Origin: a bacterium
GTDB taxonomy: Bacteria > Patescibacteriota > Minisyncoccia > Phycocordibacterales > Phycocordibacteraceae
Assembly (NCBI GenBank): GCA_037200965.1
Contig: JBBCGK010000001.1
Coordinates: 128,001 to 192,000, forward strand
Reading direction: 5' to 3'
Length of the DNA: 64,000 nt
This document shows, piece after piece, positions 4,480 through 35,729 of this stretch (positions within the stretch are counted from its first letter, which is position 1; each line of letters starts with the position of its first letter). The notes below the pieces were generated by a model, which saw only the letters and a program-made list of their open reading frames with translations, did no database searches and had not been told where the DNA came from. The translations under genes and the position numbers were made by a program.

Positions 4480-4586
4480 CCGGTTGAAAATACGCCGGAG
4501 CCCTGATGATAAATAATGGATTTAGTCTTGTGGATAAATAGGCTATATTTATTGAACATCTTGGCATTATATGATACATAATAAGT

Positions 4587-13731: not shown

Positions 13732-14581
13732 ATGAAAACGAACAACCGAAAGAGGGTTCCCGCCTCGGACGCGCTTATTTCAAAGCTGGTGCAGCTTGAG
13801 ATAGAGATAAGCAAACTGCCCCGCCTTTCCCCGCTTGAGCAGGCGAAACTTAACAACGGACGCGCGATCGAGCATTTGTATTATTCCAGCAAGCTGGAAG
13901 GCAGCAGCCTCAGCGAAAAGAAAATAGAACACGCCATCTATGGCCGACGGATTTCGGCCGCCTAAAGACAAGGATGAGCTCGAAGACCGCGAAGTGCGCG
14001 GCTTCTGGAAAGCTATCGCGCTTTCAAAGAAAATCGGCGAGAGCAGGGAACGCATCACCCTCGATACTATATTGCGCATCCACCGGACCATGTTCGAGTC
14101 CGTAGCCCCGGCAATGGCCGGTCGTTTTCGCACTGCCGGGGAGGATATAAAGAAGTTGGAATGCCTGGAACCTCCTCCGGGGAGGGTTGTACAGGAAAAG
14201 ATGTATGAATTCTGGAAAATCCTAGACGCGCAGTTGTCAGTACTCCCGTCGCATGCCAAAGGGAATACCGTCACGCAGACAAGAAAATGGAGGACCTCCG
14301 TTTTTGACACAGCGACTTGGACCCAGCATCAGGTTGCCGCAATACACCCGTTCTGCGACGGGAACGGCCGCATGTCCCGGCTCCTCACGAATCTTATACT
14401 CAGCAGATACGGGCTCCCTCCGAGCCAAGTTAAATATGAAGGTGAGGATAAGAAAATGTATCTGAGAGCGCTTTGCCAGATTGATCTCTATGGGGACTAT
14501 GAGCCGCTCAAAAAACTCATCGTGCGGAGCGTCTACGAGGAGTACCGAAAAGAACGCATTTTGAGAAGGAGAAACGGTTAG
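13732..14581 (+). pseudogene. Fic-family protein split by a +1 frameshift (77-aa N-terminal SxxxEG piece plus 213-aa Fic core)
   Basis: ORF 13732..13965 carries YSSKLEGSS (SxxxEG); overlapping ORF 13940..14581 in the +1 frame carries HPFCDGNGRMSR. Together they reconstruct a ~290-aa class II-like Fic. Promoter TTGATT-N17-TATACT at ~13657-13690. Confidence 0.55.
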
Positions 14582-18277: not shown

Positions 18278-18448
18278 AGCTCACCTACGGACAGTCCCGA
18301 AGCGCGCGTCCCTGGATCAGGGAATTCTTCCATTTCACGGGCGGCTTTACGCTTATCCTCGGGAGCGCCCTGGTGCTGCTGTTTGTGATCCAGTCGGTAT
18401 TGGAATAATCCGGGCTTTCCCTACAAATTCATCCTTGCATGCGATAAG

Positions 18449-18829
18449 ATGAAAACCATGAACACCAGAGAATCGACCATCAAAGAATACCGGTCCAGGC
18501 TGCCGCAAAGGATAAAGGTATCGATCGAATCCTCGGAAGAGGGGCTCTGGGCGCGCATTTCCGCGGACGACGGGTCTTTGGAGCACTGCTACACGCAGGC
18601 GGCTAATATAACCGAACTCGTTCCGATGGTGAACGACGCGGTGCAGACGCACTTCGAGGTTCCCGAAGAATTCAGGAGCGAGGTAGGCTACTATTCTCCC
18701 TTGTCCGACACCCACATACAACTTGAAGACATGTTCCGAAAGCTCGTATCCATGGAACGGCAGGCAAGCGCTACCGGAAAGAGCGAAGCAATCCTTACCC
18801 TCAAGGATAACCAGCTTGAGGTTTGCTAA
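18449..18829 (+). CDS. hicB: HicB-family antitoxin-like protein
   Basis: VSIESSEEGLWARISADDGSLEHCYTQAANITELVPMVNDAV resembles the HicB N-domain pattern (E-dGgY-a-vpdlPGC-TQG-T-eEA). Confidence 0.5.
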   Translation: MKTMNTRESTIKEYRSRLPQRIKVSIESSEEGLWARISADDGSLEHCYTQAANITELVPMVNDAVQTHFEVPEEFRSEVGYYSPLSDTHIQLEDMFRKLVSMERQASATGKSEAILTLKDNQLEVC

Positions 18830-18841
18830 ACCAGGGAGGAT

Positions 18842-19102
18842 ATGGCGAGGATCGGCAAACCGAAGCTCGCGGCCTGTACTCCCGAGGATGTGTTCAGGGC
18901 CTTGCGAAAGATTGGCGGGTTTGAAATCAGGTACAGCGGCAGCAAGCATACGAAAGCAGTACATCTTGTTTCCGGCAAGTGCGCCACAATTCCAAGGCAT
19001 GCCATAGTCAACAAATTCCTGTTGCGGGATTTCGTGGGAGATTTTCTGGTGCGCAATATCGGTCTTGCGGAGGAGGATATCTATAAGCACCTGTGGTGCT
19101 AG
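18842..19102 (+). CDS. hicA: HicA-family mRNA-interferase toxin-like protein
   Basis: ALRKIGGFEIRYSGSKHTKAVHLVSGKCATIPRHAIVNKFLLRDF matches the YcfA/HicA pattern (GW-vR-GSHH...TvP-H). 12-nt gap from hicB. Confidence 0.55.
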   Translation: MARIGKPKLAACTPEDVFRALRKIGGFEIRYSGSKHTKAVHLVSGKCATIPRHAIVNKFLLRDFVGDFLVRNIGLAEEDIYKHLWC

Positions 19103-19138
19103 CCGAAACGCGTGCGGAGGAGTTATCCACTTGCCGGT

Positions 19139-19150
19139 GAACCGTGGTTC
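19139..19150. promoter_or_regulatory. LexA operator (Cheo-type SOS box GAAC-N4-GTTC)
   Basis: GAACCGTGGTTC inside the longer palindrome GGTGAACC-GT-GGTTCACC, 16 nt upstream of the lexA ATG. Confidence 0.65.
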
Positions 19151-19165
19151 ACCTATCATGTATGC

Positions 19166-19744
19166 ATGAGCGACTACCGCGCGCAGAAGGAGAAAGTCGT
19201 CGCTTTCTACGAGCAGCACTATCGCCTCCCGGGATACGGAGAACTTATGAAGCTCGCGCGGTTCAAGTCGAAGAACGCCGCGTATAAGCTGATCGGCAAG
19301 CTCGTCGAGGACGGCATCGTGGAGAAGGACGCGGGCGGCAAGCTCTCGCCCGGAGAGCGGCTCCGGAGTTCCGGCGTACGGCTTCTCGGCCTCATCGAAG
19401 CGGGCTTTCCGTCGCCCGCGGAAGAAGAGCTTCTCGATGTGATGGATTTCGACGAATACCTCACGCCCCGAAAAGAGTCGACCTATATCCTCAAGGTAAA
19501 GGGCGATTCCATGATCGACGCGGGGATCCGCCCGGGCGATCTGGTCGTCGTCGAGCGCCGGGCGACCTATAAGCCGGGGGAAATCGTCGTCGCCTCGATC
19601 GACGGCGAATACACGATGAAATACCTGCGGAAGAAGGGCGACGCGTACTATCTCGACCCCGCGAACGAAAAGTTCAAACCTATTTATCCGAAGGAAGCTT
19701 TGAGCATAGAGGCGGTGGTGACCGCGGTGGTGCGTAAATACTGA
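19166..19744 (+). CDS. lexA: LexA repressor (wHTH plus S24 peptidase)
   Basis: N-terminal wHTH (SKNAAYKLIGKLVEDGIV), AG cleavage-site region, catalytic GDSM (Ser) and K of S24 fold. Confidence 0.85.
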   Translation: MSDYRAQKEKVVAFYEQHYRLPGYGELMKLARFKSKNAAYKLIGKLVEDGIVEKDAGGKLSPGERLRSSGVRLLGLIEAGFPSPAEEELLDVMDFDEYLTPRKESTYILKVKGDSMIDAGIRPGDLVVVERRATYKPGEIVVASIDGEYTMKYLRKKGDAYYLDPANEKFKPIYPKEALSIEAVVTAVVRKY

Positions 19745-19748
19745 CGGT

Positions 19749-21002
19749 ATGGAGCGCGCTCTTGTCCGCGCCATTTTTCATGTCGACGGGGACGCGTTCT
19801 TCGCTTCCTGCGAGATCGCGAAGAATCCGGCGCTCAGGGGGAAGCCGGTTATCACGGGCAAGGAGCGCGGCATCGTCTCTTCCGCAAGCTATGAAGCCAA
19901 GCGGCTCGGCGTTACCCGCGGCGTTCCGCTCTCCCAGGTGCGGCGCATCTGCCCACAGGCGATCATTCTGTCTTCGGATTATGAGACGTATCAGATGTAC
20001 TCGAAGCGCATGTACGCGATCGCGAGACGCTATACGCCCTTGGTCGAGGAATACGGAATCGACGAATGCTTCGGCGATCTCACGGGACTCGCTACACCCC
20101 CGGAGGAAGCGGTCCGCAGGATGCGGGAGGATCTGAAGCGGGAACTCAACATGACGTTCTCGGTCGGCCTTGGTCCGACCAAAGTTCTTGCGAAGCTCGG
20201 CTCAAAGCACAAGAAGCCCGACGGCTTCACGGTCGTGACGCCGGAGAACGTACCGGAGCTTCTTTCGAAGACGCCCCTTCGGAGGGTCTGGGGTATAGGG
20301 CCGAACATCGCGGCGAAGCTCGAAGGGGAAGGGCTTCATACCGCGCTCGATCTCGCGAATATGTCCGGGGCATGGGTTCGCGCCCGCTTCGCGAAGCCCG
20401 TACTCGAGCTGTGGCAGGAACTGCGGGGCGAATCCGTCATGCCGCTTTCGTGCGGCGCGGATACGGCCCCGCATTCGATACAGGTGACGCGCACGTTCGC
20501 GCCCCGGCAGGGTGCGGAGTATCTGCGGTCCGCGCTTTCGAAGAATATCGAGAATGCGTGCTCGAAGGCGCGGAGGAAAAAGCTTATCGCGGGAGAAGTT
20601 TCCTTTTTTCTCAAGACCCAGAGCTTCCGGTATGCGGGGACGCATTTCAAGCTTGGGGAAGCGACCGCGGCACCCCAGGAAGTCATCGCCGCCGTATTCG
20701 AACGTTTCCCGGAGTTGTTCCGGGAGGGCTCCCTCTACCGGGCCACCGGCGTGACGCTCTACGGGCTCGAGAAGGCGGAAAAGCCGCAGCTTGCGCTCTT
20801 TAGCGAACCGGGGGCCATGAACCGCTTCGGCGGGCTGTATAAGAGCGTGGACGCGCTTGCGAGGCGCTTCGGCCCCGGCACCGTCTATCTCGGTTCAAGC
20901 GCGGCGGCGCTTGAAGGCAAGGGGAACCCACAGGAAGGCCTCTTTAGCGGCGCATACGGCGCGAAACGCCTGCCGGTGCCGTATCTGGGAGAAGTGGGGT
21001 AA
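19749..21002 (+). CDS. Y-family translesion DNA polymerase (DinB/UmuC-like)
   Basis: IFHVDGDAFFASCE (catalytic DxD...E), SIDECFLD-like IDECFGDLTG; 417 aa; 4 nt after lexA, forming an SOS operon. Confidence 0.85.
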   Translation: MERALVRAIFHVDGDAFFASCEIAKNPALRGKPVITGKERGIVSSASYEAKRLGVTRGVPLSQVRRICPQAIILSSDYETYQMYSKRMYAIARRYTPLVEEYGIDECFGDLTGLATPPEEAVRRMREDLKRELNMTFSVGLGPTKVLAKLGSKHKKPDGFTVVTPENVPELLSKTPLRRVWGIGPNIAAKLEGEGLHTALDLANMSGAWVRARFAKPVLELWQELRGESVMPLSCGADTAPHSIQVTRTFAPRQGAEYLRSALSKNIENACSKARRKKLIAGEVSFFLKTQSFRYAGTHFKLGEATAAPQEVIAAVFERFPELFREGSLYRATGVTLYGLEKAEKPQLALFSEPGAMNRFGGLYKSVDALARRFGPGTVYLGSSAAALEGKGNPQEGLFSGAYGAKRLPVPYLGEVG

Positions 21003-21071: not shown

Positions 21072-21245
21072 ATGAGCGGAGCAAACAAGCGCCGGAAGGC
21101 GAATCGCAAGAAGGGTCCGGGTAGCAGGCCCTCAAGAAAAGACAAAGCCGCGAAACGCGAAAAAGCCAGACTGCGGCGACAGCTGCCTATCGATTGGGGA
21201 AGACCGCTGTATCCCTCAGTCTACAACCGATTTTATTGATGGGAG
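21072..21245 (+). CDS. possible small highly basic protein (57 aa)
   Basis: MSGANKRRKANRKKGPGSRPSRKDKAAKREKARLRRQ...; below the ORF-track size cut-off; followed by a hairpin terminator. Confidence 0.2.
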
Positions 21246-21253: not shown

Positions 21254-21285
21254 AGCCGGTTCGCAACGAATGTTGCGAACCGGCT
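21254..21285 (+). terminator. hairpin terminator (+ strand)
   Basis: AGCCGGTTCGCAAC-GAAT-GTTGCGAACCGGCT. Confidence 0.55.
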
Positions 21286-22589: not shown

Positions 22590-22900
22590 TCCGCGGTAGC
22601 TCAATGGTAGAGCAGCTCCCTGTGGCAAACGCAGCTTCCAAAGGAAACTTTGGTCGAAGAACGAGGTGAATTCGGGGAACCCCGAGCGAGAAATCGCGGG
22701 CAATCCCGAGCCAAGTCCCGAATGTCGGGAAAGGTGTAGAGACTATCTCGCAAGAGAGTACTTGGAAAGACGGATTAATCTTTGTCTTTCCCGGGAAGCG
22801 CCTCGCACCCTTCGGGGTGATGATATAGTCCATCCCTGCCAGTAATGGAAGGAGCGATGTAAGGAGTTGGTTCCAGGTTCGAGTCCTGGCCGCGGAGCCA
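22590..22900 (+). tRNA. tRNA-Asn(GUU) interrupted by a group I intron
   Basis: Exon 1 (22590-22623): acceptor TCCGCGG, D-arm GCTC-AATGGTA-GAGC, anticodon stem GCTCC plus CUGU. Exon 2 (22860-22900): UAA-GGAGT, variable TGGTT, T-arm CCAGG-TTCGAGT-CCTGG, acceptor CCGCGGA, discriminator G, CCA. Spliced anticodon loop CUGUUAA gives anticodon GUU. Confidence 0.75.
22624..22859 (+). ncRNA. group I intron (~236 nt) in the tRNA anticodon loop
   Basis: 5' exon ends in U; intron ends in G. An IGS-like GCAG (22631-22634) can pair with exon CUGU, including a U-G wobble. Conserved core R-like GTAGAGACTA (~22735-22745) and S-like GATATAGTCC (~22822-22831). Confidence 0.7.
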
Positions 22901-24502
22901 GATAGGATTAACATCAGCGAAAGCTGGTGTTTTTCCTTTATTGACGGGCTTTTTTGGCGGTTCGAAAGTTCTTTTTTCGTCTGTTTTTTCTCCCATCATC
23001 TGCATGACACGGTCGGAGATGATTTTGAAGGCTTTATGGTATGAAATCTCCACTTTCTTGCCGTTTATCGTCGAGTTCGAAAATAACAGCGACATCAAAA
23101 GCTTCTTGTCGTCGACCATCTCGAGCGTGCTCCGGTTTACGTAAATCTTCCGCGCCTCCTTGGCCATCTGCAAGAAAGTCGATCCCATGTCGAAGTACTT
23201 GAGATTAGCGTTCTTGTGCTTATTGAGGCTATCCATCACTTCTTCCTGCTCGAGCTTGTACTGCGCGTACTTTTTCTGATAGAAGTCCTCGCTTATTTTG
23301 CCGTCGATCTTATCGTCATATATTTTGTCGAGCCGTTGCGTCGCCGTCTGATATCGTCGCTCCAGCTCGCCGGTTGCCTTTTCCCTGAATTCTATTTCCT
23401 CGCTATGGCTTTCCTTGAGTGCTTCCTGAACCCAGGTGAGCATATGCTCGATGGCCTCGTCATGCTTCGAGCTTAACTGCTCGATATTTTCCATCACTTG
23501 CTCGTCGACCTGCTCCTGCCGGACATATTCTTTCTGCGTGCAGTTTTTATAGTGATTGCAGTGGCCATACCAATGGCCTTTCTGTATCTCCCACGTTACG
23601 CGGCCCTTGCACTCCTCGCACCGAAACACGTTTTTGAAAAGCGAGTTGTGCTTGTTGTATCTCGGCGTGCCGTTGCTGTGCATGATGTCTTGGCACCGCA
23701 TGAATAATTCTTTGGTGATAAGCGGCTCATGTCCGCCCTGGGCGACTTTGCCGTTCCAGCGGTTCATGCCGTAGTAGAACGGATCGCCAAGAAGCTGATG
23801 CACGCGCGAGTGACTTACCTTGTTGCCTCCGCGCGAGCGCATGCCGAGCTTGTACATCTCATCGGCCAGTTTCTTGGTCGAGTGTATATTCGTGGCATAG
23901 AGTTCGAACATTCTTTTGACGATCGGTGCCTTATCCGGATCGAGCACGTGGATTTTGTGTCCCTTCTCGCCGACGGTTTTGTAGCCGAGCGGCGGCTTGC
24001 TCGGCAGCCAGCCTTGCGCGAGCTTTTCTTTCTGGCCTTTCTTCACGTTCTCGGAAAGGAGTCGGATGTAGTACTCGGCCGTGGCTACTTTGACGCGCCA
24101 CATAAACCACTCGTGCGACTTGGAGTCCTTGTGGAGCGTACAGCTCTCTTTGACGAGGTGGATGGTGTGCTTTTCATCGGCCAGTATCCACTCGTCGATG
24201 ACCGGCACGTCGGCAAAGTTGCGCGTGAGGCGGTCGGTCGTCTCGACGAAGATCGTGTTGATCTTCGTCTTGGTCACGTATTCGAGCATCTCGTGGAATA
24301 TCTTGCGCTGGATTTTGCCAGCCGCCGATTCCTGGATGGCGAATACCTTGACCATCTCGTAGCCGTTGCGATCGGCATAGTCGTGCAAGAGCTTTTCCTG
24401 CGCCGGAAGCGAGTAACCGGTATCCTCCTGATCCTTGGATGACACGCGGGCGTACCCCACGGCTCGCAATGGTTGATTTTCTTGATTCATTGTCATGGTC
24501 AT
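22775..24502 (-). CDS. large serine recombinase (phage/ICE-type integrase)
   Basis: AVGYARVSSKDQ catalytic Ser region, recombinase domain, Cys-rich zinc-ribbon (CEECKG...CNHYKNC), coiled-coil C-terminus. Track ORF starts at a GTG (24550); an ATG at 24502 is the more likely start. The 3' ~126 nt run antisense through tRNA exon 2 and the intron 3' end. Confidence 0.85.
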   Translation of the reverse strand: MTMTMNQENQPLRAVGYARVSSKDQEDTGYSLPAQEKLLHDYADRNGYEMVKVFAIQESAAGKIQRKIFHEMLEYVTKTKINTIFVETTDRLTRNFADVPVIDEWILADEKHTIHLVKESCTLHKDSKSHEWFMWRVKVATAEYYIRLLSENVKKGQKEKLAQGWLPSKPPLGYKTVGEKGHKIHVLDPDKAPIVKRMFELYATNIHSTKKLADEMYKLGMRSRGGNKVSHSRVHQLLGDPFYYGMNRWNGKVAQGGHEPLITKELFMRCQDIMHSNGTPRYNKHNSLFKNVFRCEECKGRVTWEIQKGHWYGHCNHYKNCTQKEYVRQEQVDEQVMENIEQLSSKHDEAIEHMLTWVQEALKESHSEEIEFREKATGELERRYQTATQRLDKIYDDKIDGKISEDFYQKKYAQYKLEQEEVMDSLNKHKNANLKYFDMGSTFLQMAKEARKIYVNRSTLEMVDDKKLLMSLLFSNSTINGKKVEISYHKAFKIISDRVMQMMGEKTDEKRTFEPPKKPVNKGKTPAFADVNPIWLRGQDSNLEPTPYIAPSITGRDGLYHHPEGCEALPGKDKD

Positions 24503-24546
24503 AATTGCTAATAATTTGTTGGTTCGAATTCGACGTTCGGTACCAG

Positions 24547-24596
24547 ACACACCATATGCCTATTCGTTTGCGCTGCTAAGCCCGAGTTACCCACAT
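24547..24596. repeat. copy A of an imperfect ~50-60-nt repeat (TATGCCTATTCG...AAGCC...GTTACCCACAT)
   Basis: Shares blocks CCTATGCCTATTCG and GTTACCCACAT with 35475..35534; same orientation; immediately upstream of the intact recombinase gene. Confidence 0.5.
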
Positions 24597-24708
24597 TCCA
24601 CCAGTCTTTTGCTCGAAACGTTGGGTTTTGTTGGCTTTTGTTGGGTATTTGCAGCATTTTCCGGTGGCTACTGGTGGGTTCCGGTGACTCAAAAACGGTT
24701 AAATAAGG

Positions 24709-25293
24709 TCAGTTGCGGTTAAATGACGACCGGCCTTTCATCGTCATTTTTGCTACCAGCTTGGCTTTCATGTCGTTGATCTTCTTGAGGTTCGCGCCGT
24801 TAACTTCTTTATAATTTTCTTTAATTTCTTTTGAACCCTTAGCTTCTCTATCTTCTCCGTGCGATGCGGTATGCGCCGCGTGCCGGCCGGCATTTCGTGC
24901 AGATCGGCCGCCATCCTGCGCCAGATGTAGGACGGAAAGCAAGGTGATGCTTCGTGGCTTGAACTTGGCATCCGCGCCACGCACTTTCGTGGTCACGATA
25001 AATGCCCACGCTTCGAGCGTGTCGAGACATTTCTTGATCGTGCGCCAGTCTTTGAGGCCACAGTAAAGCAAGAGCGTCCGGTTCGACGCCTCGATGGTTT
25101 GGCTCGCTTTGTTCGATGCGATCTCAGTCAGAGCGCAGTAGACATTCCGCAGATTGCGGTACGCATCATCGCTTACGCGCTTGTCGATCCATTCCTGTCG
25201 CATGTACCGCAAAGCCGGCTTGTCTTGATAGGCAAACGGAGCTTCGCGGTAGTCTCGGACCTTATGCTTTTGTTCGCTTTGGTTTGGTGTCAT
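24709..25293 (-). CDS. hypothetical protein of integrative element (possible wHTH replication/regulatory protein)
   Basis: Basic protein; wHTH-like segment ASNRTLLLYCGLKDWRTIKKCLDTLEAW. Confidence 0.4.
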   Translation of the reverse strand: MTPNQSEQKHKVRDYREAPFAYQDKPALRYMRQEWIDKRVSDDAYRNLRNVYCALTEIASNKASQTIEASNRTLLLYCGLKDWRTIKKCLDTLEAWAFIVTTKVRGADAKFKPRSITLLSVLHLAQDGGRSARNAGRHAAHTASHGEDREAKGSKEIKENYKEVNGANLKKINDMKAKLVAKMTMKGRSSFNRN

Positions 25294-25471
25294 ACGGTTC
25301 GATGAGCGTGCGGCCGCTCGTGATGTCCTCGAGGTAAAACCGCGACAGCGCGTCGTAGTACCTCACCAGATTGAAGGCGATGTCGTGCAGGTCTTGGTCG
25401 TTTACGTCCAAGCCAAAGTCATGCTTCAGGATCGCACGGAGCTTCTCCAGCGTTTCCGGTTTGATTTTCAC
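25262..25471 (-). CDS. hypothetical small protein
   Basis: 69-aa ORF; 3' end overlaps the next gene start. Confidence 0.3.
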   Translation of the reverse strand: MKIKPETLEKLRAILKHDFGLDVNDQDLHDIAFNLVRYYDALSRFYLEDITSGRTLIEPYDTKPKRTKA

Positions 25472-25476
25472 AGGTC

Positions 25477-25719
25477 TTAGTCCTCGGCATAAATCCGTAC
25501 TTTGACCTGTTTGAGCTGGTTGAAGAACGCCTGCGGTTCGACCGCAAGCTCGCGATTCCAGTATCGCTTCACCAGAGAATCCAGGTCAGGGCTCTTGCCG
25601 AAACAAAAGAGCACCTTGTGCGGATTTCCCCGATCCACGACCTCCAGAGAATCAGGAATGAATAATAAAAGCACCGCGACCAATGCCAGGTCGGCGGTTT
25701 TGTAATAATTGTTTTGCAT
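25477..25719 (-). CDS. hypothetical small protein
   Basis: 80-aa ORF in the same gene string as the recombinase. Confidence 0.3.
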   Translation of the reverse strand: MQNNYYKTADLALVAVLLLFIPDSLEVVDRGNPHKVLFCFGKSPDLDSLVKRYWNRELAVEPQAFFNQLKQVKVRIYAED

Positions 25720-25868
25720 GTGGCATTTTCATTGTCATTAACGTCCTCTCACACGCATTCATTGTGGCAATTTGGCATACGCTTCTGGAATACTGCGAGC
25801 GTGTAGTCAGACACGAAAAAAGCAGCCATTTTGCTGCTTGTCGCTCCCACTTATTAACTACATCAGAG

Positions 25869-26534
25869 CTACACCTCTTTTATTTTGTATTCCGGATTGA
25901 GTTTGTATCCGTTTACGGCGCGGCCAACGATAAAGCTGTCGATGCCGAGCGCGTAGCGCACCTTGCGGTTGATCATGAGCTTCGCGTTGTGGAGCGACTT
26001 GCGGTTCTTGCTTCCGGTCAATCCTACAAGCTCGTCCGTTGGCACATACCCCTTTCGTTCAAGAAGGACCCGTACGATTTTCTGCCGTTGCTTTTCCGTA
26101 CCCATCGAGTAGCAATGCTTAGCTTTCGGCTCGCGGTACAGGTCGCCATCTTTTGAAAAGTAAACGGTCTTTTTACTATCTGCCGGCTTGGTTCGCTTGC
26201 CGGCAAGGCCGTATGCCGCGCCTTCGGCCGTGAGCTTCGCCACGCTTGTTTCCAAGTCCGCGATTTTGCCAAGCGCAGCCAGATACGCTCGTGTCATTGC
26301 TTCTATGCTCCGGCTGTTTTGATTGAGCGCACCCACCAATGCTTGAATGGCCAGATCGTCGGTCTTTACCAGTTCGGCCGGCCGCTCGATGTCCGCAAAG
26401 TCCCTGAGCGCGGATCGCAGTTCGCCGGTAATCGCAGAGGTAGAAAAGCGATAAGCATTCGCCATACCGACAGACCGGTTCGTATTGAATTTGTACGTCT
26501 TGGCCAATGTGGCCTTTTTCATCTTCATAATCAT
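25869..26534 (-). CDS. hypothetical protein of integrative element
   Basis: 221-aa ORF; C-terminal wHTH-like region; divergent from the AbiE operon. Confidence 0.4.
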   Translation of the reverse strand: MIMKMKKATLAKTYKFNTNRSVGMANAYRFSTSAITGELRSALRDFADIERPAELVKTDDLAIQALVGALNQNSRSIEAMTRAYLAALGKIADLETSVAKLTAEGAAYGLAGKRTKPADSKKTVYFSKDGDLYREPKAKHCYSMGTEKQRQKIVRVLLERKGYVPTDELVGLTGSKNRKSLHNAKLMINRKVRYALGIDSFIVGRAVNGYKLNPEYKIKEV

Positions 26535-26636
26535 CTTTAAGCCGTATTGCTTATTCTGGATAAGCTACTTGTGCTTAAGCTTAGTATATCATATAATGCA
26601 CTGGAAGTTAGCTTTAAACTAACTATAGGTAAGTAT

Positions 26637-27254
26637 ATGGATAATAAACCGACAAAAGGTCAATATGTAGAGGTCTTATTGAGATCTCCCAAAACCGTCT
26701 TTTCAATCAAAGACGTGGCTTTGTTATGGGGAGAAGAAGCTGAAAATGCTGTTCGCGTCAGATTAAACAGCTACGTAAAAAGCGGTAAGTTGATCCGAGT
26801 ACATCGCGGCTTTTATGCTAAAGACAAGAATTACAACCGTTCTGAATTAGCGACTGCGATCTACACTCCCTCTTACATCAGCTTTGAGTCTGTTTTAACT
26901 CGTGCCGGTATCAACTTTCAATACTACGGCAATATTTTTGTTGCTTCATACGTGACCAGAGAGATCGAAGCTGATGGTCAAAAAATCTCTTTCATCCGCA
27001 TGAAAGATTATGTCTTAAGTAACACTGCCGGCATCGAGCATACGGAAGGTATTGCCACAGCAACTAAGGAGCGCGCTTTCTTGGACCGGATTTATGTCAG
27101 CAAAGACTATCATTTCGATAATTTGGATGCTTTGGATTGGGATAAAGTCTTTGAGATGTTACCTATCTACCACAACAAGCGAATGGAAAAGAAAGTAAAG
27201 ACCTATCTCGAGCACTATAAAAGCAACCAGCCCGATAAAGCGAAAAACGTATGA
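26637..27254 (+). CDS. AbiEi-family antitoxin/transcriptional regulator
   Basis: N-terminal wHTH and ...SGKLIRVHRGFYA... typical of AbiEi; stop overlaps the AbiEii start. Confidence 0.6.
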   Translation: MDNKPTKGQYVEVLLRSPKTVFSIKDVALLWGEEAENAVRVRLNSYVKSGKLIRVHRGFYAKDKNYNRSELATAIYTPSYISFESVLTRAGINFQYYGNIFVASYVTREIEADGQKISFIRMKDYVLSNTAGIEHTEGIATATKERAFLDRIYVSKDYHFDNLDALDWDKVFEMLPIYHNKRMEKKVKTYLEHYKSNQPDKAKNV

Positions 27255-28285
27255 CTTTAGATTACTCAAAGCACAAAGCAATATTGCTCCAAATTCTCAA
27301 GGATATTTATTCCGATACTTCGATCGCTCCTCACTTGGGTTTCAAAGGCGGGACGGCCGCGCTTTTATTCTACGGACTCAATCGTAACTCGGTAGACTTG
27401 GACTTCGATCTGTTGGACGAAAGCAAAGAGGCAGAGGTCTTTGAGAAGATTCAGAAAATCACTGCGGCCTATGGAACGATTACCGATTCCTACATTAAAA
27501 AGTTCAATCTCCTGAATGTTATCTCTTACGCACCTGGAGCACAGAAGATAAAAGTCGAAATCAATCGCCGGAACTTTGGCTCGCGCTATGAGCTTAAGAC
27601 CTTGCTTGGTATCTCCATGCTGGTCATGGTGGAAGCTGATACATACGCCCACAAATTGATGGCCATGTACGAGCGCGTCGGTAAGACGAGCCGTGATATT
27701 TTCGACGTGTACTATTTCGAAAAGAAAGGCTGGGATATCAATAAAACTATTGTTGAGGATCGTTCCGGACTGTCATTCAAGGACACCCTCGCCAAGTGCA
27801 TCGATTTGCTGGAAAAGATGGATAACAAGCACATCTTGGATGGCTTGGGTGAATTGCTGACAGATCCGCAAAAAGATTGGGCCCGCGCCAAGCTCAAAGA
27901 AGAGACTATTTTCTTGCTCAAAGTAAAAATGGAAGGCTTGGGCAAGATTGATACCCTGCCGCCATATACTTCGGCCGATGTTGAAGCTATACAAACCATA
28001 CTCAATGATAAGTTCTTTAAGAACACTCCTTTTGCATGCGAGAAATTGACGGTTAAAAAGGATAAAGTGTTTTTCGAAAAGAACAGCTCTGACGAGGATA
28101 GCTACGGGTACGACATTGAGTGCGTGCTTTTGCAGGATGGTAAGAAGGTAGAAGTCTCGATCGATCCGATAACAAACAAGGTCGGCGCAGATCAAGTTGC
28201 CCATCTCATAGCACATACCGTTTGGGCAAAGCTGGATCAATCGATGACCAGTCAGCTTTGGAAGAATTTTCCAACCAACCTATAA
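27251..28285 (+). CDS. AbiEii/AbiGii-family nucleotidyltransferase toxin (DUF1814)
   Basis: GFKGGTAALLFYGLNRNSVDLDFDL, the hallmark NTase motif of AbiEii. Confidence 0.7.
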   Translation: MTLDYSKHKAILLQILKDIYSDTSIAPHLGFKGGTAALLFYGLNRNSVDLDFDLLDESKEAEVFEKIQKITAAYGTITDSYIKKFNLLNVISYAPGAQKIKVEINRRNFGSRYELKTLLGISMLVMVEADTYAHKLMAMYERVGKTSRDIFDVYYFEKKGWDINKTIVEDRSGLSFKDTLAKCIDLLEKMDNKHILDGLGELLTDPQKDWARAKLKEETIFLLKVKMEGLGKIDTLPPYTSADVEAIQTILNDKFFKNTPFACEKLTVKKDKVFFEKNSSDEDSYGYDIECVLLQDGKKVEVSIDPITNKVGADQVAHLIAHTVWAKLDQSMTSQLWKNFPTNL

Positions 28286-28289
28286 ATTT

Positions 28290-29360
28290 ATGCCAAAGGA
28301 AATCGCCAAAAAGTCATTGAATAAGAACTTGCACAAGGCAAGCGCCGCGAAGAAAGATGAGTTTTATACTCAGATTGTTGATATTGAAAAAGAGTTGAAA
28401 CACTACAAAGATCAATTCCGTGGCAAGGTAGTGTATTGCAACTGCGATGATCCATTTGAGAGCAACTTCTTTAAATATTTCGCAGGAAATTTCAATGCAC
28501 TCGGACTGAAAAGACTTATTGCCACTAGTTACAAGCCGTCTCCTATAGCCAATACGCAATTAGGGCTATTTGGCGACATCAAGGCCATAAACACGCCCAA
28601 GGGCCGTCCTAAGGTAACCGCGAACAAATTCATTATCAATGAAGTTGATGATATAGACGGCGATGGCGCATTTGACTTGCGTGATATTGCCGAGCAACTC
28701 AAGGCTAACAAAAACAATGAATGGGCTCCATTAGAGGGTGAAGGAGATTTTAGAAGTGAAGAAAGCATAGAACTGCTGAAGCAAGCTGATATTGTAGTAA
28801 CAAATCCGCCTTTTTCCTTGTTCCGCGAGTATGTCGCACAGCTAGTAGAACACAACAAAAAGTTTTTGATTCTAGGTGACCAAAATGCAGTAACCTATAA
28901 AGAAACCTTTGGCTTCATCAAAGAAAATAAACTATGGCATGGCTACGACAATGGTGGCACAAAATGGTTTCAGGTTCCTGACGATTATGACATTGAGACT
29001 GAATCAAGAATAAAAGTTGAGAATGGTATAAAGTTTTTCAGCATGGGTAGAATTGTGTGGTATACAAACCTCGAGACCACAAAACGTCACGAGAAAATAG
29101 TCTTGTATAAGAAATATACACCAGAGGAATTCCCTAAATATGATAATTCCGATGTTATAAACATCGATAAAGTCTCCGATATTCCGATGGATTATGACGG
29201 AGTGATGGGTGTACCAATTACTTTTGTTGATAAATATAGTCCAGCACAGTTTGAAATTTTGGGTATCGCTAATTCCGCAAGATGGATTGGTTACGAATGT
29301 TTTACCTTGATTAAAGGTAGGAAAATATATAATCGAATTTTAATTAAGCGTAAAAAATAA
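28290..29360 (+). CDS. putative N6-adenine DNA methyltransferase
   Basis: NPPF (VVTNPPFSLF) motif IV and upstream DEFYTQ; 5 nt after AbiEii and 1 nt before the next gene. Confidence 0.55.
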   Translation: MPKEIAKKSLNKNLHKASAAKKDEFYTQIVDIEKELKHYKDQFRGKVVYCNCDDPFESNFFKYFAGNFNALGLKRLIATSYKPSPIANTQLGLFGDIKAINTPKGRPKVTANKFIINEVDDIDGDGAFDLRDIAEQLKANKNNEWAPLEGEGDFRSEESIELLKQADIVVTNPPFSLFREYVAQLVEHNKKFLILGDQNAVTYKETFGFIKENKLWHGYDNGGTKWFQVPDDYDIETESRIKVENGIKFFSMGRIVWYTNLETTKRHEKIVLYKKYTPEEFPKYDNSDVINIDKVSDIPMDYDGVMGVPITFVDKYSPAQFEILGIANSARWIGYECFTLIKGRKIYNRILIKRKK

Positions 29361-29361
29361 T

Positions 29362-30465
29362 ATGAAAATTGATCTAAACAAAATTACTGTGCGGGAAGTC
29401 GTGAATGGCTACAAAGATGGCTCTGAGGAGGGCGTTGTTGCGTATGGTGGAAAGCTTGATGTGCGCCCGAAGTATCAGCGCGAATTCGTATACAAAGACA
29501 AACAGCGCGATGCGGTTATTGATACCGTTAGAAAAGGCTTCCCTCTCAACGTGATGTATTGGGTGAAAACCGATGACGGAAATTTTGAAGTACTTGACGG
29601 ACAGCAGAGGACAATCAGTCTAGGCCAGTATGTAAATGGCGACTTCTCGGTGGATTTCAATGGTCGCCTCGCTATGTTCCATAACCTTACCAAAGAGGAG
29701 CAGGAACAAATTCTGAACTACGAATTGATGATTTATTTCTGCGAGGGAAACGATAAAGAGAAACTTGATTGGTTTAAGACAATCAATATTGCCGGAGAGC
29801 GTTTAACCGACCAAGAGCTACGCAACGCTGTATATACCGGCCCGTGGCTTTCTGATGCAAAGCTAAAATTCAGCAAATCAAACTGTGCGGCGTATTTGTT
29901 GGCAAACGATGGCGGACAGTTAATTAGCGGCTCGCCGATCCGGCAAGAGTATTTGGAAACCGCACTCTCGTGGATAAATAACGATGAAGTGGCCAATTAC
30001 ATGGCCAAACATCAACACGACGAGAATGCAGAGGAATTGTGGGCTTACTTCCAAAGCGTTATTGCATGGGTACGAAAGACGTTCCCAAATTACCGCAAGG
30101 AAATGACGAGTGTGAATTGGGGTGAGCTATACAACGAATTCAAAGACAAGAAATTGAATGAGACTAAGCTCGAAGCCGAAGTTAAGAAGTTGATGCAAGA
30201 CGAGGACGTGACGAAAAAGTCCGGTATCTACCCTTATGTCTTAACGGGACAGGAGCGAGAGCTTTCTATCCGCGCTTTTACCGACAAGATGAAGCGTGAA
30301 GCATACGAGCGGCAAGATGGCATCTGCCCGTTTTGCAAGAAAAAATATGACATCTCAGAAATGGAGGCCGATCATATTGCTCCATGGCATGAAGGTGGAA
30401 AGACTACGGCCGAAAATTGTCAGATGCTCTGCAAACAAGACAACCGGACGAAGTCTGGAAAATAA
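29362..30465 (+). CDS. DUF262 (ParB-like DGQQR NTPase/nuclease) plus C-terminal HNH endonuclease protein (GmrSD-like)
   Basis: DGQQR motif (LDGQQRT) and HNH motif DHIAPWHEGGKTTAENCQMLCKQDN. Confidence 0.75.
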   Translation: MKIDLNKITVREVVNGYKDGSEEGVVAYGGKLDVRPKYQREFVYKDKQRDAVIDTVRKGFPLNVMYWVKTDDGNFEVLDGQQRTISLGQYVNGDFSVDFNGRLAMFHNLTKEEQEQILNYELMIYFCEGNDKEKLDWFKTINIAGERLTDQELRNAVYTGPWLSDAKLKFSKSNCAAYLLANDGGQLISGSPIRQEYLETALSWINNDEVANYMAKHQHDENAEELWAYFQSVIAWVRKTFPNYRKEMTSVNWGELYNEFKDKKLNETKLEAEVKKLMQDEDVTKKSGIYPYVLTGQERELSIRAFTDKMKREAYERQDGICPFCKKKYDISEMEADHIAPWHEGGKTTAENCQMLCKQDNRTKSGK

Positions 30466-30482
30466 GGTTATGAAAGAGTCCC

Positions 30483-32966
30483 ATGAAAATCATCCGAGCT
30501 ATACAATTTTTCTTTCGTAGGATTTCATGGAGACAGAGAACCTCTCCCTCCTTTGCTTTTGAAGTGGACAAAAAACCGAACTGGCTCGTCTATGCTTGGG
30601 GTGTCTTTGCCGGCTTCTTTTACAGCATCTTTCAGCGACGACGCGAGTCATTAAGGGTACTTTACCGCAATCAGGAACGCCGGAAGACTGAGTACACCAT
30701 ACCGATGCAGATCGTGCGGCAGTCTATGGGTACGATCTTGGTTCTAATACTGGCACTGGTCGGAGTAACCCTCGCTGATTGGGGCGTCGAGAAGCTCGCA
30801 AATCTACTCTCTCAGGTGCAGGCCGGCTGGTTTATAGCTTTCGCCGCACACTTTAATTTCTTTACGATTCCCGACAAAGAATTCTTTAAGCTCGTGCTTG
30901 AGATATCTATTGGCGCGATCTCCGCCATCCTCGGACTCTTATTTGCTTTATACGCGGTCGGTCTCCAGCTCACGACCGATAAGTACTCGTCTAAGGTGTC
31001 CGATTACGTCAATCAGGAAACCGTCGGCAATTTCTTTTTCAAACTCCTCGTCTTTACTGATATCTTTGCGATTGCCGTCTTGCTCCGTATTCAGATTCTC
31101 GCGCTTCCGTCACCGATCAGCTTCATTGCCGTTGTCGTTCTAGTAGTTATCTGCTTGCTTGGCATCATTGTTTTCAAGAATCACTACATTCTCACCATCA
31201 AGCCGAAGAACCTTTTTGAGAGGTTGCAGTCCGACATAAAGACGAGCATCCGGCTTGCCTCGGATCGGACCCGGTATTCCTATAAAAGCTGGAGCATTGT
31301 GCAGACTTCGCGCGTGCGAACGCAGGATCATCTCTCAATACTCAAAACTCTCTTTGAAGATCTCTGGCACGCCGAAAATTGGAACGACGTGATTTACACG
31401 CCGATGGTGCTTGCAAACTTGATCACCGACTACGCCAAGCGAAAGAAATATATCGACAGAGAGCGTGGCTGGTGGTTCCCGCAAACGCAGGTGGAGGTCA
31501 AGGCAAACAGCATGTCTACGCTCACCCTGAAGCTGAATTTCGAGCTTCAGGGCAAAGGGCCTCTGCGTATAGGTAGCCCAGACTATTTGTGGTTCGAGAA
31601 CGGTATTTTCGACATTCTCAAAGCGGTAGAGTCTCGTGTTGGAACTGCGCCGCAGGATACTCATCTGCTCAAATACGTCATTGATTTTTATCAGACCGCA
31701 CTTGCTGGCGACTACGAAAAAGATGAGTACAGCCGCTATCAGAAAGCAGTCGCGGGTCTATATGAGAATCAGGAGACCGACGCTTTCGAGAAATATCTCG
31801 ATGGCTTCTTTGCTTTGTATGAGAGAGTGCAAACCGACGACGAGCTGGGCGCGTATCTCAACGCTTACTTTGCGATCGGGCTGACTCTTATCGACGGCTT
31901 CGATTACGCCAAGTATCAGGAGGTAATAAAATCGCTCATCGGCGCAGACGGCCAGCTCACTCGCACCCGTGAGGAGCTTGCTCGGCTCGATCTGCCCGGA
32001 GTGTTTTATAACCAAATCCTCGACTACTGGGATCGCCTCGATCTTGAAGTCCAGTGTGAGGGACGCGTTATAACGCCGCAAGACCGGCTCGAAAAGGAAA
32101 CGCTCGACGATGCCCATGCAAAGGAAAAGCAGTACTTCGCCAAATTCTTTGAGAAGCTGATTACGCACCACAACACCGTTCTCCAAGACCTCTACCAGAA
32201 AGGAAAACATAAGGAGCTTGCGATGTTCATCAAGGCTCGCTTCGAGTGGATCAGTCGCTTGCTTTATATCAACAAGGTTGCTCTGGCCGACGAGTATGGC
32301 GCGAAGATCGCCGGTGCTGGCGTTTACCTTCCATTTCTGCCAAAGCAGATACTTCTCGACTCGGAGTTTTGGGAAGAACTTGAAAAGACTCTATTCCCAT
32401 CAGTCATTGAAAATTGCCCAACGCTTTTTAAGGTGTTGTCCGGATTGCTCACGCTCATGTTGCCAGTCATCAATGCCGACGAGAAAAATGTCGACAACAT
32501 CATGTATCGCAATCGCCTCGGTCTCATTCTTGGCGGATTCGTATACCTCGTCTGCGAATTCAGGCAGGATTACAGCCTGATGATCGAGTACGTGCAAACG
32601 ATTGAAGTTGCGTACCAGCCAGGCCAGTTCGTCAAAGCAATGGAGGTACTCTCGAAGCCGAAGGAAGTCGGAGGTCTCGACCTCACGCTCAAGCTCATAA
32701 ACTGGGAGCTTACTCGCTACCATCACTGGTTCGGCGAAATCCTCGGCCAGATATCGGAGCTTCCTAAGACCTACGATAACGTCCGTGTCTATTCCGGCTT
32801 GCAAGAGGTCGCAGACCATCCGAGCAAGTTCATCCGTGAGTTGAGCTACCGGCCGTACCAGCCGGAGGAAGAATGCGCGGAGGCATTTGTCGAGTGGGCA
32901 AAGAAGCGAGATGCTATCCGACAATTGGTCGAAGTGCTTAAGAAAGTTCAAGAGAAAAAGATATGA
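30483..32966 (+). CDS. large (827 aa) membrane-anchored protein of unknown function
   Basis: ~4 TM helices in residues ~80-230, then ~600-aa soluble region with no recognisable motif; low GC. Confidence 0.5.
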   Translation: MKIIRAIQFFFRRISWRQRTSPSFAFEVDKKPNWLVYAWGVFAGFFYSIFQRRRESLRVLYRNQERRKTEYTIPMQIVRQSMGTILVLILALVGVTLADWGVEKLANLLSQVQAGWFIAFAAHFNFFTIPDKEFFKLVLEISIGAISAILGLLFALYAVGLQLTTDKYSSKVSDYVNQETVGNFFFKLLVFTDIFAIAVLLRIQILALPSPISFIAVVVLVVICLLGIIVFKNHYILTIKPKNLFERLQSDIKTSIRLASDRTRYSYKSWSIVQTSRVRTQDHLSILKTLFEDLWHAENWNDVIYTPMVLANLITDYAKRKKYIDRERGWWFPQTQVEVKANSMSTLTLKLNFELQGKGPLRIGSPDYLWFENGIFDILKAVESRVGTAPQDTHLLKYVIDFYQTALAGDYEKDEYSRYQKAVAGLYENQETDAFEKYLDGFFALYERVQTDDELGAYLNAYFAIGLTLIDGFDYAKYQEVIKSLIGADGQLTRTREELARLDLPGVFYNQILDYWDRLDLEVQCEGRVITPQDRLEKETLDDAHAKEKQYFAKFFEKLITHHNTVLQDLYQKGKHKELAMFIKARFEWISRLLYINKVALADEYGAKIAGAGVYLPFLPKQILLDSEFWEELEKTLFPSVIENCPTLFKVLSGLLTLMLPVINADEKNVDNIMYRNRLGLILGGFVYLVCEFRQDYSLMIEYVQTIEVAYQPGQFVKAMEVLSKPKEVGGLDLTLKLINWELTRYHHWFGEILGQISELPKTYDNVRVYSGLQEVADHPSKFIRELSYRPYQPEEECAEAFVEWAKKRDAIRQLVEVLKKVQEKKI

Positions 32967-34066: not shown

Positions 34067-34072
34067 AAAGAT

Positions 34073-34666
34073 ATGGGAGAAAAAGATAAACAAATTCTAA
34101 AAGATTCCGCGTTGGTCATTGCCGACCAGATAGCGTCCGCATTGCCGGGATTAAATATTGCATGGGGTTTAAGCAAGGCATTGTATGGTGCTGGTCTAAA
34201 ACTTCGTGAACAAAGAGCATTGGAATGGATTGAAATGGTTAGAGATAATCCCTCGGCATTTACTGAAACAATTATGCAAGATGCGAAATTCCAAGACGGA
34301 TTTGTGTACGCGTTGGAGCGTTATATCAGAGAGAAAAACGATAACAAAAGAAAAGCGATGCGCTCCGTATTTCTTGGGTTTGCGCTATCTCCGAATCAGG
34401 ACACTTTTGAGCTAGAGAGGATGTACCATGTATTAGGTATTCTTAGTGCAGAGGATATGATCGTTTTGAAGGATGTCGATTTTACACGAACCGATTTTCA
34501 TCAAGTGTATGAGCAGACTACCGACAAAAATGAGAACGTCTACAATTTGGTGAATGCCGGAATCTTGATGTCTGACTATTCATCTCGCATTGGCCCCATA
34601 GCCGCGCCATTTATAAAAGTAACTGCGTTTGGGAAAAGTTTTGTCGGATTCTTAAAATCAACATGA
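34073..34666 (+). CDS. hypothetical protein (197 aa)
   Basis: 6-nt gap after the upstream gene; stop overlaps the start of the DUF2726 gene. Confidence 0.4.
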   Translation: MGEKDKQILKDSALVIADQIASALPGLNIAWGLSKALYGAGLKLREQRALEWIEMVRDNPSAFTETIMQDAKFQDGFVYALERYIREKNDNKRKAMRSVFLGFALSPNQDTFELERMYHVLGILSAEDMIVLKDVDFTRTDFHQVYEQTTDKNENVYNLVNAGILMSDYSSRIGPIAAPFIKVTAFGKSFVGFLKST

Positions 34667-35470: not shown

Positions 35471-35474
35471 CGCA

Positions 35475-35534
35475 ACACGACCCTATGCCTATTCGCGTGA
35501 GAAGCCAAGCTCGTTTTGGCGTAGTTACCCACAT
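35475..35534. repeat. copy B of the imperfect repeat
   Basis: See copy A; lies between ORF 35159..35470 and the recombinase remnant. Confidence 0.5.
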
Positions 35535-35729
35535 CTCGTGCCAAGGCTTCAAATTTCGTCAAACCGGTGGTCGAGGGTGCAAACTGGTATCAGTTGTGGA
35601 TCGCTCCGACAAAGTTCGCTACAGGGGCACACAGGCGGGAAATCGAGGGGTTATAGGTTTTCGTACTTGGCCAGGAGGCCTTTCATTTGGTCGAGCACCA
35701 CGGTCGGATATTTGTACTCCTCCGCCCAG

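Follow-up and report, generated by a model that had tools for sequence, protein, structure and literature searches.

The SOS network of the Patescibacteria was reportedly surveyed by Sanchez-Osuna, Barbe and Erill in 2017 (Environ Microbiol 19:3465), and the locus described here is an instance of that network. In Gram-positive bacteria (Firmicutes and Actinobacteria), LexA combines a winged helix-turn-helix with an S24 domain, an Ala-Gly site and a Ser/Lys dyad, and autoregulates lexA through the Cheo box, a GAAC-N4-GTTC core in an operator overlapping the lexA promoter. According to the summary of Jara et al. 2003 given in PMC6511836, Geobacter sulfurreducens has lexA-(imuB-C)-polY operons, in which an autoregulated, damage-induced lexA shares its transcript with a Y-family polymerase gene. 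A toxin-antitoxin pair has also been linked to such a polymerase, as in the dinB-yafN-yafO-yafP genes of E. coli (PMC2814082): there, the type II pair yafNO follows dinB, and mitomycin C induces it through the dinB promoter, which LexA controls. Among toxin-antitoxin families, HicAB systems (PF07927, PF15919; 1WHZ, 2YZT, 6G1N, 4P78) comprise two genes, encoding a small HicA with a dsRBD-like alpha-beta-beta-beta-alpha fold and a conserved catalytic His, and a HicB whose N-terminal beta-beta-beta-alpha domain is usually followed by a C-terminal ribbon-helix-helix or helix-turn-helix domain.

The window, that is, the whole stretch of 64,000 nucleotides analysed here, contains a HicB/HicA-like pair directly upstream of lexA and a Y-family polymerase gene (polY). 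All four genes and a palindrome were confirmed at the positions given by an earlier sequence-only reading, and the features of the locus are as follows.

18409-19120, no strand: hicBA module, 712 bp inserted here or deleted in the closest syntenic relative
18422-18450, + strand: tentative hicB promoter TACAAA-17-TAAGAT, read by eye and inferred
18449-18829, + strand: hicB-like gene, 126 aa from 18449, or 123 aa if the start is 18458
18842-19102, + strand: hicA-like gene, 86 aa, giving an antitoxin-then-toxin order
19131-19159, + strand: lexA promoter TTGCCG-17 nt-TATCAT, from a consensus scan with 9/12 matches
19136-19153, no strand: predicted LexA operator, filling the promoter spacer
19166-19744, + strand: lexA, 192 aa, N-terminal winged helix-turn-helix and S24 autopeptidase domain
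19749-21002, + strand: polY, Y-family DNA polymerase, 417 aa, internal beta-clamp motif and C-terminal tail
21254-21285, no strand: hairpin AGCCGGTTCGCAAC-GAAT-GTTGCGAACCGGCT with a 14-bp stem, read directly from the sequence

Very probably, these genes form two independent units lying side by side, a conserved SOS cassette lexA-polY and a self-contained hicBA. Sequence features, conservation, family assignments and the insertion/deletion were computed, and from these we infer DNA binding, cleavage, a leaderless start, toxin activity and the absence of coupling beyond possible read-through. Only 4 nt separate the lexA stop (19744) from the polY ATG (19749), while 15 nt lie between the end of the GAAC-N4-GTTC box (19150) and the lexA ATG at 19166. 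The hicA stop is 28 nt from the -35 box of lexA, 33 nt from the palindrome, 36 nt from its GAAC core and 63 nt from the lexA start codon; the 63 nt proposed earlier as the distance from HicA/HicB to the LexA box is thus the distance to lexA itself, the box being 33 or 36 nt away. The hairpin at 21254-21285 sits between the lexA-polY operon and a convergent cold-shock gene, and it is a possible bidirectional terminator, which the terminator scan did not call because no T-run follows on the + strand.

The palindrome is a perfect 8+2+8 repeat, GGTGAACC-GT-GGTTCACC, at 19136-19153, with the core GAACCGTGGTTC at 19139-19150 inside the extended palindrome, exactly as the sequence-only reading had placed it. 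As an 18-mer it is unique within the window, with a chance expectation of 0.01 matches at three or fewer mismatches. The bare GAAC-N4-GTTC pattern occurs twice in the window against 1.2 copies expected, which is not significant, and the second copy (41774) was rejected as a chance match, since it falls inside a 656-aa ORF and the count matches expectation. A 20-nt position weight matrix trained on 70 homologous operators, whose clade consensus is AGGTGAACCATGGTTCACCT, gave the lexA operator a score of 26.0 (training median, 27.5), while the next-best site in the 64 kb scored 6.3, under the mean maximum of 10.4 for shuffled sequence, so that no second LexA-like site was found in the window. The palindrome lies within the 17 nt that separate TTGCCG from TATCAT in the promoter and fills them, and the lexA ATG lies 6 nt past the -10 box; therefore, the lexA mRNA is probably leaderless.

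Gene neighbours were compared at 80 related lexA loci, and usable upstream sequence was available for 79 loci (78 species representatives and the window). The exact GAAC-N4-GTTC core is present in 71 of these 79, and all 70 of the non-window loci with the exact core share the same arrangement of -35 box, operator, -10 box and ATG. The promoter spacer is mostly 17-18 nt, and the ATG falls 6-9 nt past the -10 box in 63 of the 71 loci. The operator flanks are GGT...ACC in most loci of the clade and TA...TA in a minority. Downstream of lexA, a Y-family polymerase gene on the same strand was found in 77 of the 80 species. From the exact core in most loci, the shared arrangement and this recurrent polymerase gene, comparison shows both operator and lexA-polY cassette to be real and conserved features, of a kind that is ordinary among Patescibacteria. 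The identification of the palindrome as a Cheo-type (GAAC-N4-GTTC) LexA operator, placed for autoregulation, is likewise supported, and the proposal of a Cheo-type operator upstream of lexA is borne out by the same promoter position across the related loci. It is extremely unlikely that the palindrome acts instead as an RNA hairpin that terminates or stabilizes the hicBA transcript: its RNA would make a 7-bp stem directly past hicA, but it is followed by no U-tract, the terminator scan was negative there, and the region folds no more stably than shuffled sequence (z = -0.54). Moreover, 70 further loci, all without hicBA, have the palindrome at the same place in the promoter, and this conservation effectively refutes a hicBA terminator.

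The product of lexA matches TIGR00498 over residues 16-191 with 111.1 bits (cutoff, 110.95) and PF00717 with an E-value of 1.6e-27. Pfam LexA_DNA_bind was not reported for this protein, and its DNA-binding domain is for that reason called divergent; the protein nevertheless aligns with residues 26-197 of E. coli LexA, a stretch that takes in the recognition-helix region (SKNAAYKLIGKL vs SPNAAEEHLKAL). The A79-G80 cleavage site, Ser115 and Lys152 are invariant among 23 LexA homologs, and the gene can be accepted as encoding a full-length LexA with an Ala-Gly site and a Ser/Lys dyad. A longer lexA of 210 aa, starting from a GTG at 19112, was rejected, as homologs are mostly 187-192 aa and translation of the added part would run through the operator itself.

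The adjacent polymerase matches PF00817 (5.8e-44), PF11799 (8.2e-14) and PF11798 (5.3e-6), which are the IMS, IMS_C and IMS_HHH domains, and carries an internal beta-clamp motif, QLALF, at residue 347. It misses every NCBIfam family cutoff, of DinB (Pol IV) and UmuC (Pol V) alike, with 211.7 bits against a cutoff of 371 for the best Pol IV model and 177.3 bits against 431 for UmuC. Among NCBIfam models and PDB entries, Pol IV/DinB comes closest, and every one of the best PDB matches is a Pol IV. By these profiles, the protein is a separate Y-family subgroup, and the description of a UmuC/DinB-like polymerase 4 nt past lexA holds for the family and the gap, while the DinB and UmuC equivalog cutoffs are not reached. 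Its tail, judged by eye, resembles the RecA-N-terminus-like motif of polymerases reported to bind RecA in the absence of a small subunit (PMC6511836, PMC12926913).

The C-terminal domain of this LexA raises the question of a dual function of the UmuDAb type, in which a cleaved UmuD'-like fragment would serve as a polymerase subunit and the operon would be an analogue of umuDC rather than simply lexA plus dinB. The match of this domain to UmuD is as good as that of the entire protein to LexA: the UmuD in 8gmt aligns over 116 residues with 73.0 bits, compared with 45.7-62.2 bits for LexA C-terminal-domain constructs, and the UmuD model NF007621 gives 109.9 against a cutoff of 110. The motif AGFPSPA, in addition, equals the CGFPSPA of UmuD except for the Cys, the order of S24 protein and then polymerase recurs in the 77 species with gaps often below 30 nt, and the polymerase has the size of UmuC and an internal QLxLF motif. 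However, Pol IV models give the polymerase a higher score than the UmuC model does, only Pol IV is among its best PDB matches, its RecA-N-terminus-like tail recalls polymerases that bind RecA with no small subunit, and the lexA-polY gap exceeds 60 nt in 48 of the 77 species, many of which have unrelated genes between lexA and polY. Unlike the UmuD of umuDC operons, which is small and has an S24 domain but no DNA-binding domain, the protein has a LexA-type N-terminal domain of about 75 residues. On balance, a dual-function LexA is unlikely.

For the SOS cassette as an independent unit, the following circuit is proposed. A LexA dimer on GGTGAAC-N4-GTTCACC, between the -35 and -10 boxes, would block RNA polymerase; upon DNA damage, RecA filaments would stimulate LexA self-cleavage at Ala79-Gly80, and the promoter would open to yield a probably leaderless lexA-polY mRNA. 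The polymerase may then be recruited via its QLALF clamp motif, and perhaps also via its RecA-N-terminus-like tail, for lesion bypass, while newly made LexA would close the circuit.

The upstream pair is more divergent. HicA of the window matches PF07927 with an E-value of 0.0015 and 19 bits, below the gathering cutoff of 27, while 17 of its 18 homologs match PF07927 (best E-value, 2.8e-6) and some carry precomputed PF07927 annotation. His36, His41 and an IPR motif are invariant. Its match to the structure 1WHZ is weak, and in this weak alignment His36 falls one residue off the His of the 1WHZ GGH motif; the HicA model (pLDDT 75) shows the alpha-beta-beta-beta-alpha order (H-E-E-E-H). Foldseek searches of the PDB returned no significant match for the model of HicA or HicB, and a HicA-family profile had no match among PDB sequences. 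HicB of the window has no Pfam match; it has a HicB-like N-terminal domain, partial RNase-H-like with beta-beta-beta-alpha order, and Pfam recognized no DNA-binding domain (ribbon-helix-helix or Xre helix-turn-helix). Its C-terminal 55 residues were modelled with low confidence as one helix and one strand, and both HicA and HicB end with a conserved Cys. A HicB-like gene lies directly upstream of hicA in 40 of 46 hicA loci, the other six being mostly cut by contig ends, and hicBA loci elsewhere occur in unrelated contexts. The pair can therefore be assigned, at the family level only, as a divergent Patescibacteria HicB/HicA two-gene module; the HicA and HicB assignments proposed before hold at that level, the window proteins themselves being under Pfam thresholds.

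As to start signals, hicB more likely begins at the ATG at 18458 than at 18449, and this ATG lies seven nt past the -10 box of the tentative hicB promoter, which the consensus promoter scan did not call. Homologous hicB genes have a TAnnnT hexamer 7-9 nt ahead of the ATG, and the hicB mRNA may, tentatively, be leaderless. A ribosome-binding site, GGGAGGA, precedes hicA.

The arrangement next to lexA appears to be particular to the window genome. In the closest syntenic relative (L088/L089), LexA is 88% identical and the 712 bp at 18409-19120 that hold hicBA are absent; the two loci have a CAP gene, a small ORF, lexA, polY, CSD, MarR and a recombinase in common, and homology ends past the small ORF and restarts at window position 19121, which corresponds to L088 position 1248. 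The GC3 of the hicBA module is 0.66-0.69, against 0.75-0.78 in the flanking genes. No hicBA was found in the 80 related lexA loci, and neither lexA nor polY in the 46 hicA loci. Accordingly, the adjacency looks accidental, without a regulatory link, because a small mobile hicBA landed upstream of the promoter in the window genome alone. The proposed history is that hicB-hicA, a mobile type II toxin-antitoxin module with HicA as a putative ribonuclease and HicB as its neutralizing partner, entered the window genome 9 nt ahead of the -35 box of lexA, or was deleted from the relatives, and that it would use its own start signals outside LexA control.

The sequence-only reading had suggested instead that the toxin-antitoxin pair is co-regulated with the SOS response. 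That HicBA and lexA-polY form one SOS regulatory unit, either via LexA control of hicBA or via read-through upon antitoxin degradation, is distinctly unlikely. The window has no LexA-like site ahead of hicB; the sole site lies downstream of hicA, and LexA at this box would be unable to repress the hicB promoter, because the box is downstream of hicBA and inside the lexA promoter. The absence of a second LexA-like site within 64 kb, the lack of co-occurrence in either set of loci (0/80 and 0/46), the relative without the 712-bp module and the module composition unlike that of its neighbours also argue against co-regulation. What speaks for some coupling is the short distance of 28 nt from the hicA stop to the -35 box: neither the terminator scan nor folding found a terminator between hicA and the lexA promoter, so the two units are perhaps not transcriptionally insulated, and unterminated read-through from hicBA into lexA-polY is the sole plausible link. 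A precedent is E. coli yafNO, whose mitomycin C induction runs through the dinB promoter.

Inside the operons of several other species, a MazF-like toxin gene comes directly after lexA. In at least five of them, the MazF-like gene starts 2-6 nt past lexA, with LexA in the antitoxin position. These genes also count in favour of a shared unit, and because of them toxin-SOS links in Patescibacteria cannot be dismissed outright. A broader and improbable reading would make lexA-polY a recurrent landing site for ribonuclease toxins through a toxin/SOS link, with the UmuD-like fragment also acting as a polymerase subunit; if this were true, hicBA read-through would be a LexA-independent input to lexA-polY whenever the pair is derepressed.

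With two independent units as the preferred reading, the locus supplies, for an uncultivated lineage of Patescibacteria, a LexA operator and promoter validated by sequence comparison, which may be used for clade-wide regulon prediction. The toxin-antitoxin adjacency would represent a recent insertion (or a loss in relatives) and not regulatory design, and the locus otherwise offers little beyond good annotation. Specialists might be interested in the apparently leaderless lexA and hicB, the UmuD-like LexA domain beside a polymerase and the MazF-like genes in the operons of sister species.

Compared with described HicAB systems, the window pair has the same two-gene composition, the small HicA with its conserved His and the N-terminal domain of HicB, but it belongs to a divergent subfamily under Pfam thresholds, with the antitoxin first, without the usual C-terminal DNA-binding domain of HicB and with a conserved Cys at the end of both proteins. 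Like E. coli YafNO, it is a type II pair beside a LexA-linked Y-family polymerase gene; it is, however, of the HicAB family, its position is not conserved, and it lies upstream of the LexA box rather than downstream of the polymerase gene. Acinetobacter UmuDAb (PMC8565304) clusters with UmuD, whereas the window protein aligns with LexA over its full length and passes the LexA equivalog model. The Geobacter operons, as summarized in PMC6511836, resemble the window in joining an autoregulated lexA to a Y-family polymerase gene, an arrangement that in the window is predicted; they differ in LexA motif and phylum and in having an ImuB-C gene between lexA and polY, where the window has none. The Patescibacteria SOS study of 2017, which concerns the same superphylum and regulator and is also cited in PMC8565304, is placed by a passage of PMC7739468 among cases of LexA evolving direct-repeat motifs, whereas the loci here show a clear palindrome. 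That palindrome has the GAAC-N4-GTTC core of the Gram-positive Cheo box and likewise overlaps the lexA promoter, and the protein shares the winged helix-turn-helix, S24 domain, Ala-Gly site and Ser/Lys dyad of Gram-positive LexA. Unlike in Gram-positive bacteria, the operator has extended GGT...ACC flanks (in most loci of the clade; TA...TA in a minority) and sits between the -35 and -10 boxes of a gene that appears to be leaderless, lexA forms an operon with a Y-family polymerase gene, and the LexA C-terminal domain resembles UmuD more than it does the solved LexA C-terminal domains.

Four co-directional genes make up the locus, and both the sequence and the ORF list place them where the sequence-only reading had put them:

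18449-18829, same strand as the other three genes, HicB-like gene (hicB, antitoxin candidate)
18842-19102, co-directional, HicA-like gene (hicA, toxin candidate)
19166-19744, co-directional, lexA
19749-21002, co-directional, Y-family DNA polymerase gene (polY)

The gap between lexA and polY is 4 nt. The 63 nt given earlier as the distance from hicA to the LexA box is the interval between the hicA stop codon and the start codon of lexA; the palindrome begins 33 nt after hicA. Downstream of polY, a highly basic 55-aa ORF (21072-21239, +), which has no call in the public annotation and is missing from L088, a locus of the closest syntenic relative, is probably not a gene.

The predicted LexA operator, GAACCGTGGTTC at 19139-19150, lies within a perfect 8+2+8 palindrome, GGTGAACC-GT-GGTTCACC at 19136-19153, which occupies exactly the -35/-10 spacer of a promoter found by consensus scan (TTGCCG-17 nt-TATCAT, 19131-19159), with the lexA ATG 6 nt 3' of the -10 hexamer. 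The bare 4-N4-4 motif occurs twice in the window against 1.2 expected, which is not significant, the second GAAC-N4-GTTC copy being inside a 656-aa ORF, and the operator 18-mer is present once (0.01 expected). Among 80 species-representative loci encoding close LexA relatives, 78 had usable upstream sequence; together with the window, these 79 lexA loci carry GAAC-N4-GTTC exactly in 71 cases, with one mismatch in seven and with two mismatches in one. The proposal that this motif is the LexA box of lexA is supported by the unique palindrome in the promoter spacer and by these exact cores. The extended core is GGTGAAC...GTTCACC in most lexA loci and TAGAACG..CGTTCTA, the classical Gram-positive form of the LexA box, in a minority. 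With a weight matrix derived from 70 sites, the window operator scores 26.0 (training median 27.5) and no other site in the 64 kb exceeds 6.3; the best score in shuffled sequence averages 10.4.

The related loci also have mostly TTGACA, TTGACG or TTGACT as the -35 element and TATACT or TACACT as the -10 element, with a spacer of 17-18 nt in 56 of 71 and the first ATG 6-9 nt past the -10 in 63 of 71. One predicted promoter architecture is, therefore, common to the clade, consisting of -35, LexA box, -10 and a start codon placed where transcription is expected to begin, which implies a leaderless lexA mRNA. A start codon 6-9 nt past the -10 without a ribosome-binding site is seen for lexA (19154-19168) and apparently for hicB (18445-18460) and its homologs, which suggests leaderless mRNAs in this lineage; hicA, by contrast, is preceded by a strong GGGAGGA ribosome-binding site.

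The 192-aa LexA narrowly passes the LexA equivalog model (111.1 vs 110.95 bits), has a strong S24 domain and aligns with E. coli LexA residues 26 to 197, helix-turn-helix included, while the Ala79-Gly80 cleavage site and the dyad residues Ser115 and Lys152 are invariant across 23 homologs, all of which bears out its assignment. The closest homologs carry the annotation Paceibacterota or Kaiserbacteria LexA, and because most homologs are 187-192 aa long, the ATG at 19166 is preferred as start over an upstream GTG. The predicted C-terminal domain, which contains the motif AGFPSPA, is unusually UmuD-like, matching UmuD with 73.0 bits over 116 residues vs 45.7-62.2 bits for LexA C-terminal-domain constructs, and the UmuD model scores the protein at 109.9 against a cutoff of 110. 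In one related locus (L049), two lexA homologs flank the polymerase gene (4001-4549 and 6157-6717), the second being 54% identical to the window LexA.

IMS, HhH and little-finger domains support the assignment of PolY as a Y-family polymerase, which is closer to Pol IV than to UmuC and falls below every family cutoff. It carries an internal clamp motif (QLALF, residue 347), and on visual comparison the C-terminal tail looks similar to a RecA-N-terminus-like motif; such a motif has been reported in Y-family polymerases that bind RecA (PMC6511836, PMC12926913). In 77 of 80 species the polymerase gene follows lexA in the same orientation, and in 29 of these 77 the gap is at most 60 nt.

The putative HicAB assignment is supported at the family level; of the window proteins themselves, HicA matches PF07927 weakly (E 0.0015, 19 bits vs 27) and HicB has no match. 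PF07927 is matched by 17 of 18 HicA homologs (best E 2.8e-6), the family has invariant His36, His41 and IPR motif, the predicted model follows an alpha-beta-beta-beta-alpha order, and HicA structure 1WHZ is a weak match. PF15919 is matched by 6 of 12 close and 28 of 71 distant HicB homologs, whose only other matches are UPF0150 and DUF1902; the HicB family profile matches TTHA1756 (2YZT, E 2.8e-4), and the library-wide profile search yielded 275 representatives. Foldseek was negative with both models, and neither a ribbon-helix-helix nor a helix-turn-helix domain was seen in the HicB-like protein. A C-terminal cysteine is kept in both families (...VC in HicB, 18827-18829; ...LWC in HicA, 19097-19099), as is one further invariant cysteine each (HCYTQA in HicB, Cys12 in HicA; alignments A1 and A2); these residues may bind metal or form a disulfide.

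The suggested co-regulation of hicBA with the SOS response is not supported. LexA would be unable to repress hicBA because the box is downstream of hicA; the one link still conceivable is read-through, since no terminator was found between hicA and the lexA promoter. No HicA or HicB homolog occurs within about 4 kb of lexA in any of the 80 loci, and neither lexA nor polY within 3-5 kb of hicA in 46 hicA loci, of which a metagenome scan contributed 40 and contig look-ups the other six; in 40 of the 46, hicB is directly 5' of hicA. Most informative is the closest relative (L088, L089), whose LexA is 88% identical: it shares the neighbours (CAP-domain gene, 46-aa ORF, lexA, polY, cold-shock gene, MarR, recombinase) and lacks hicBA. 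Homology stops after the 46-aa ORF and restarts at 19121, 10 nt 5' of the -35 box; in the relative, the restart point comes just 5 nt after the stop of the small ORF. Positions 18409-19120 thus represent an insertion/deletion of 712 bp, with a GC3 of 0.66-0.69, lower than the 0.75-0.78 of the flanking genes.

The lexA-polY operon is a variable cassette. In other Patescibacteria a gene for a PemK/MazF-like toxin (PF02452) begins within it, 2-6 nt past the stop codon of lexA (L008 4579, L014 4567, L030 3181, L057 4566, L082 4702 and 5193; E 3e-13, 2e-11 and 8e-4 for three tested proteins), so that lexA is there in the position expected of an antitoxin gene; the window's lexA-polY gap holds no such gene. 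Between lexA and polY, sister species carry a DnaQ-type exonuclease fused to GIY-YIG (Cho-like), the exonuclease alone, small GIY-YIG proteins, DUF5680 or a MazG-like protein, the loci grouping as L058, L061 and L066 (482-483 aa); L060, L063, L068-L070, L076 and L078 (about 200 aa); L029, L066, L072 and L075; L011 and L033; and L082.

Further features of the window are a group I intron and a large serine recombinase gene:

22608-22852, within 22590-22900 (+), group I intron (Rfam RF00028, 64.1 bits) inside a tRNA gene
22775-24550 (-), large serine recombinase gene with Resolvase and Recombinase domains

The tRNA-His(gtg), with a 224-nt intron, was called by ARAGORN using the intron option and missed by default, and the 3' end of the recombinase gene overlaps it. 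Beyond the recombinase, at about 24000-37000, GC is 0.41-0.53 vs about 0.58; recombinase gene and low-GC DNA probably belong to one integrated element, some 2 kb away from the lexA-polY operon. Another low-GC stretch, at 6-13 kb, has at its edge a Fic-domain gene whose start is overlapped by a 77-aa ORF (13732-14581, +); gene and ORF may be another toxin-antitoxin-like pair.

Compared with known systems, the window operator is the Gram-positive Cheo-type motif. Sanchez-Osuna et al. 2017 reportedly analysed SOS in Patescibacteria. PMC7739468 places that work among direct-repeat LexA motifs, whereas the motif of the window and related loci is a palindrome. In E. coli dinB-yafNOP, toxin-antitoxin genes lie within a LexA-controlled polymerase operon, 3' of the LexA-controlled promoter (PMC2814082), and hicBA is not so placed. 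The lexA-polY operon itself resembles that of Geobacter, in which, according to PMC6511836, lexA is co-transcribed with a Y-family polymerase gene.
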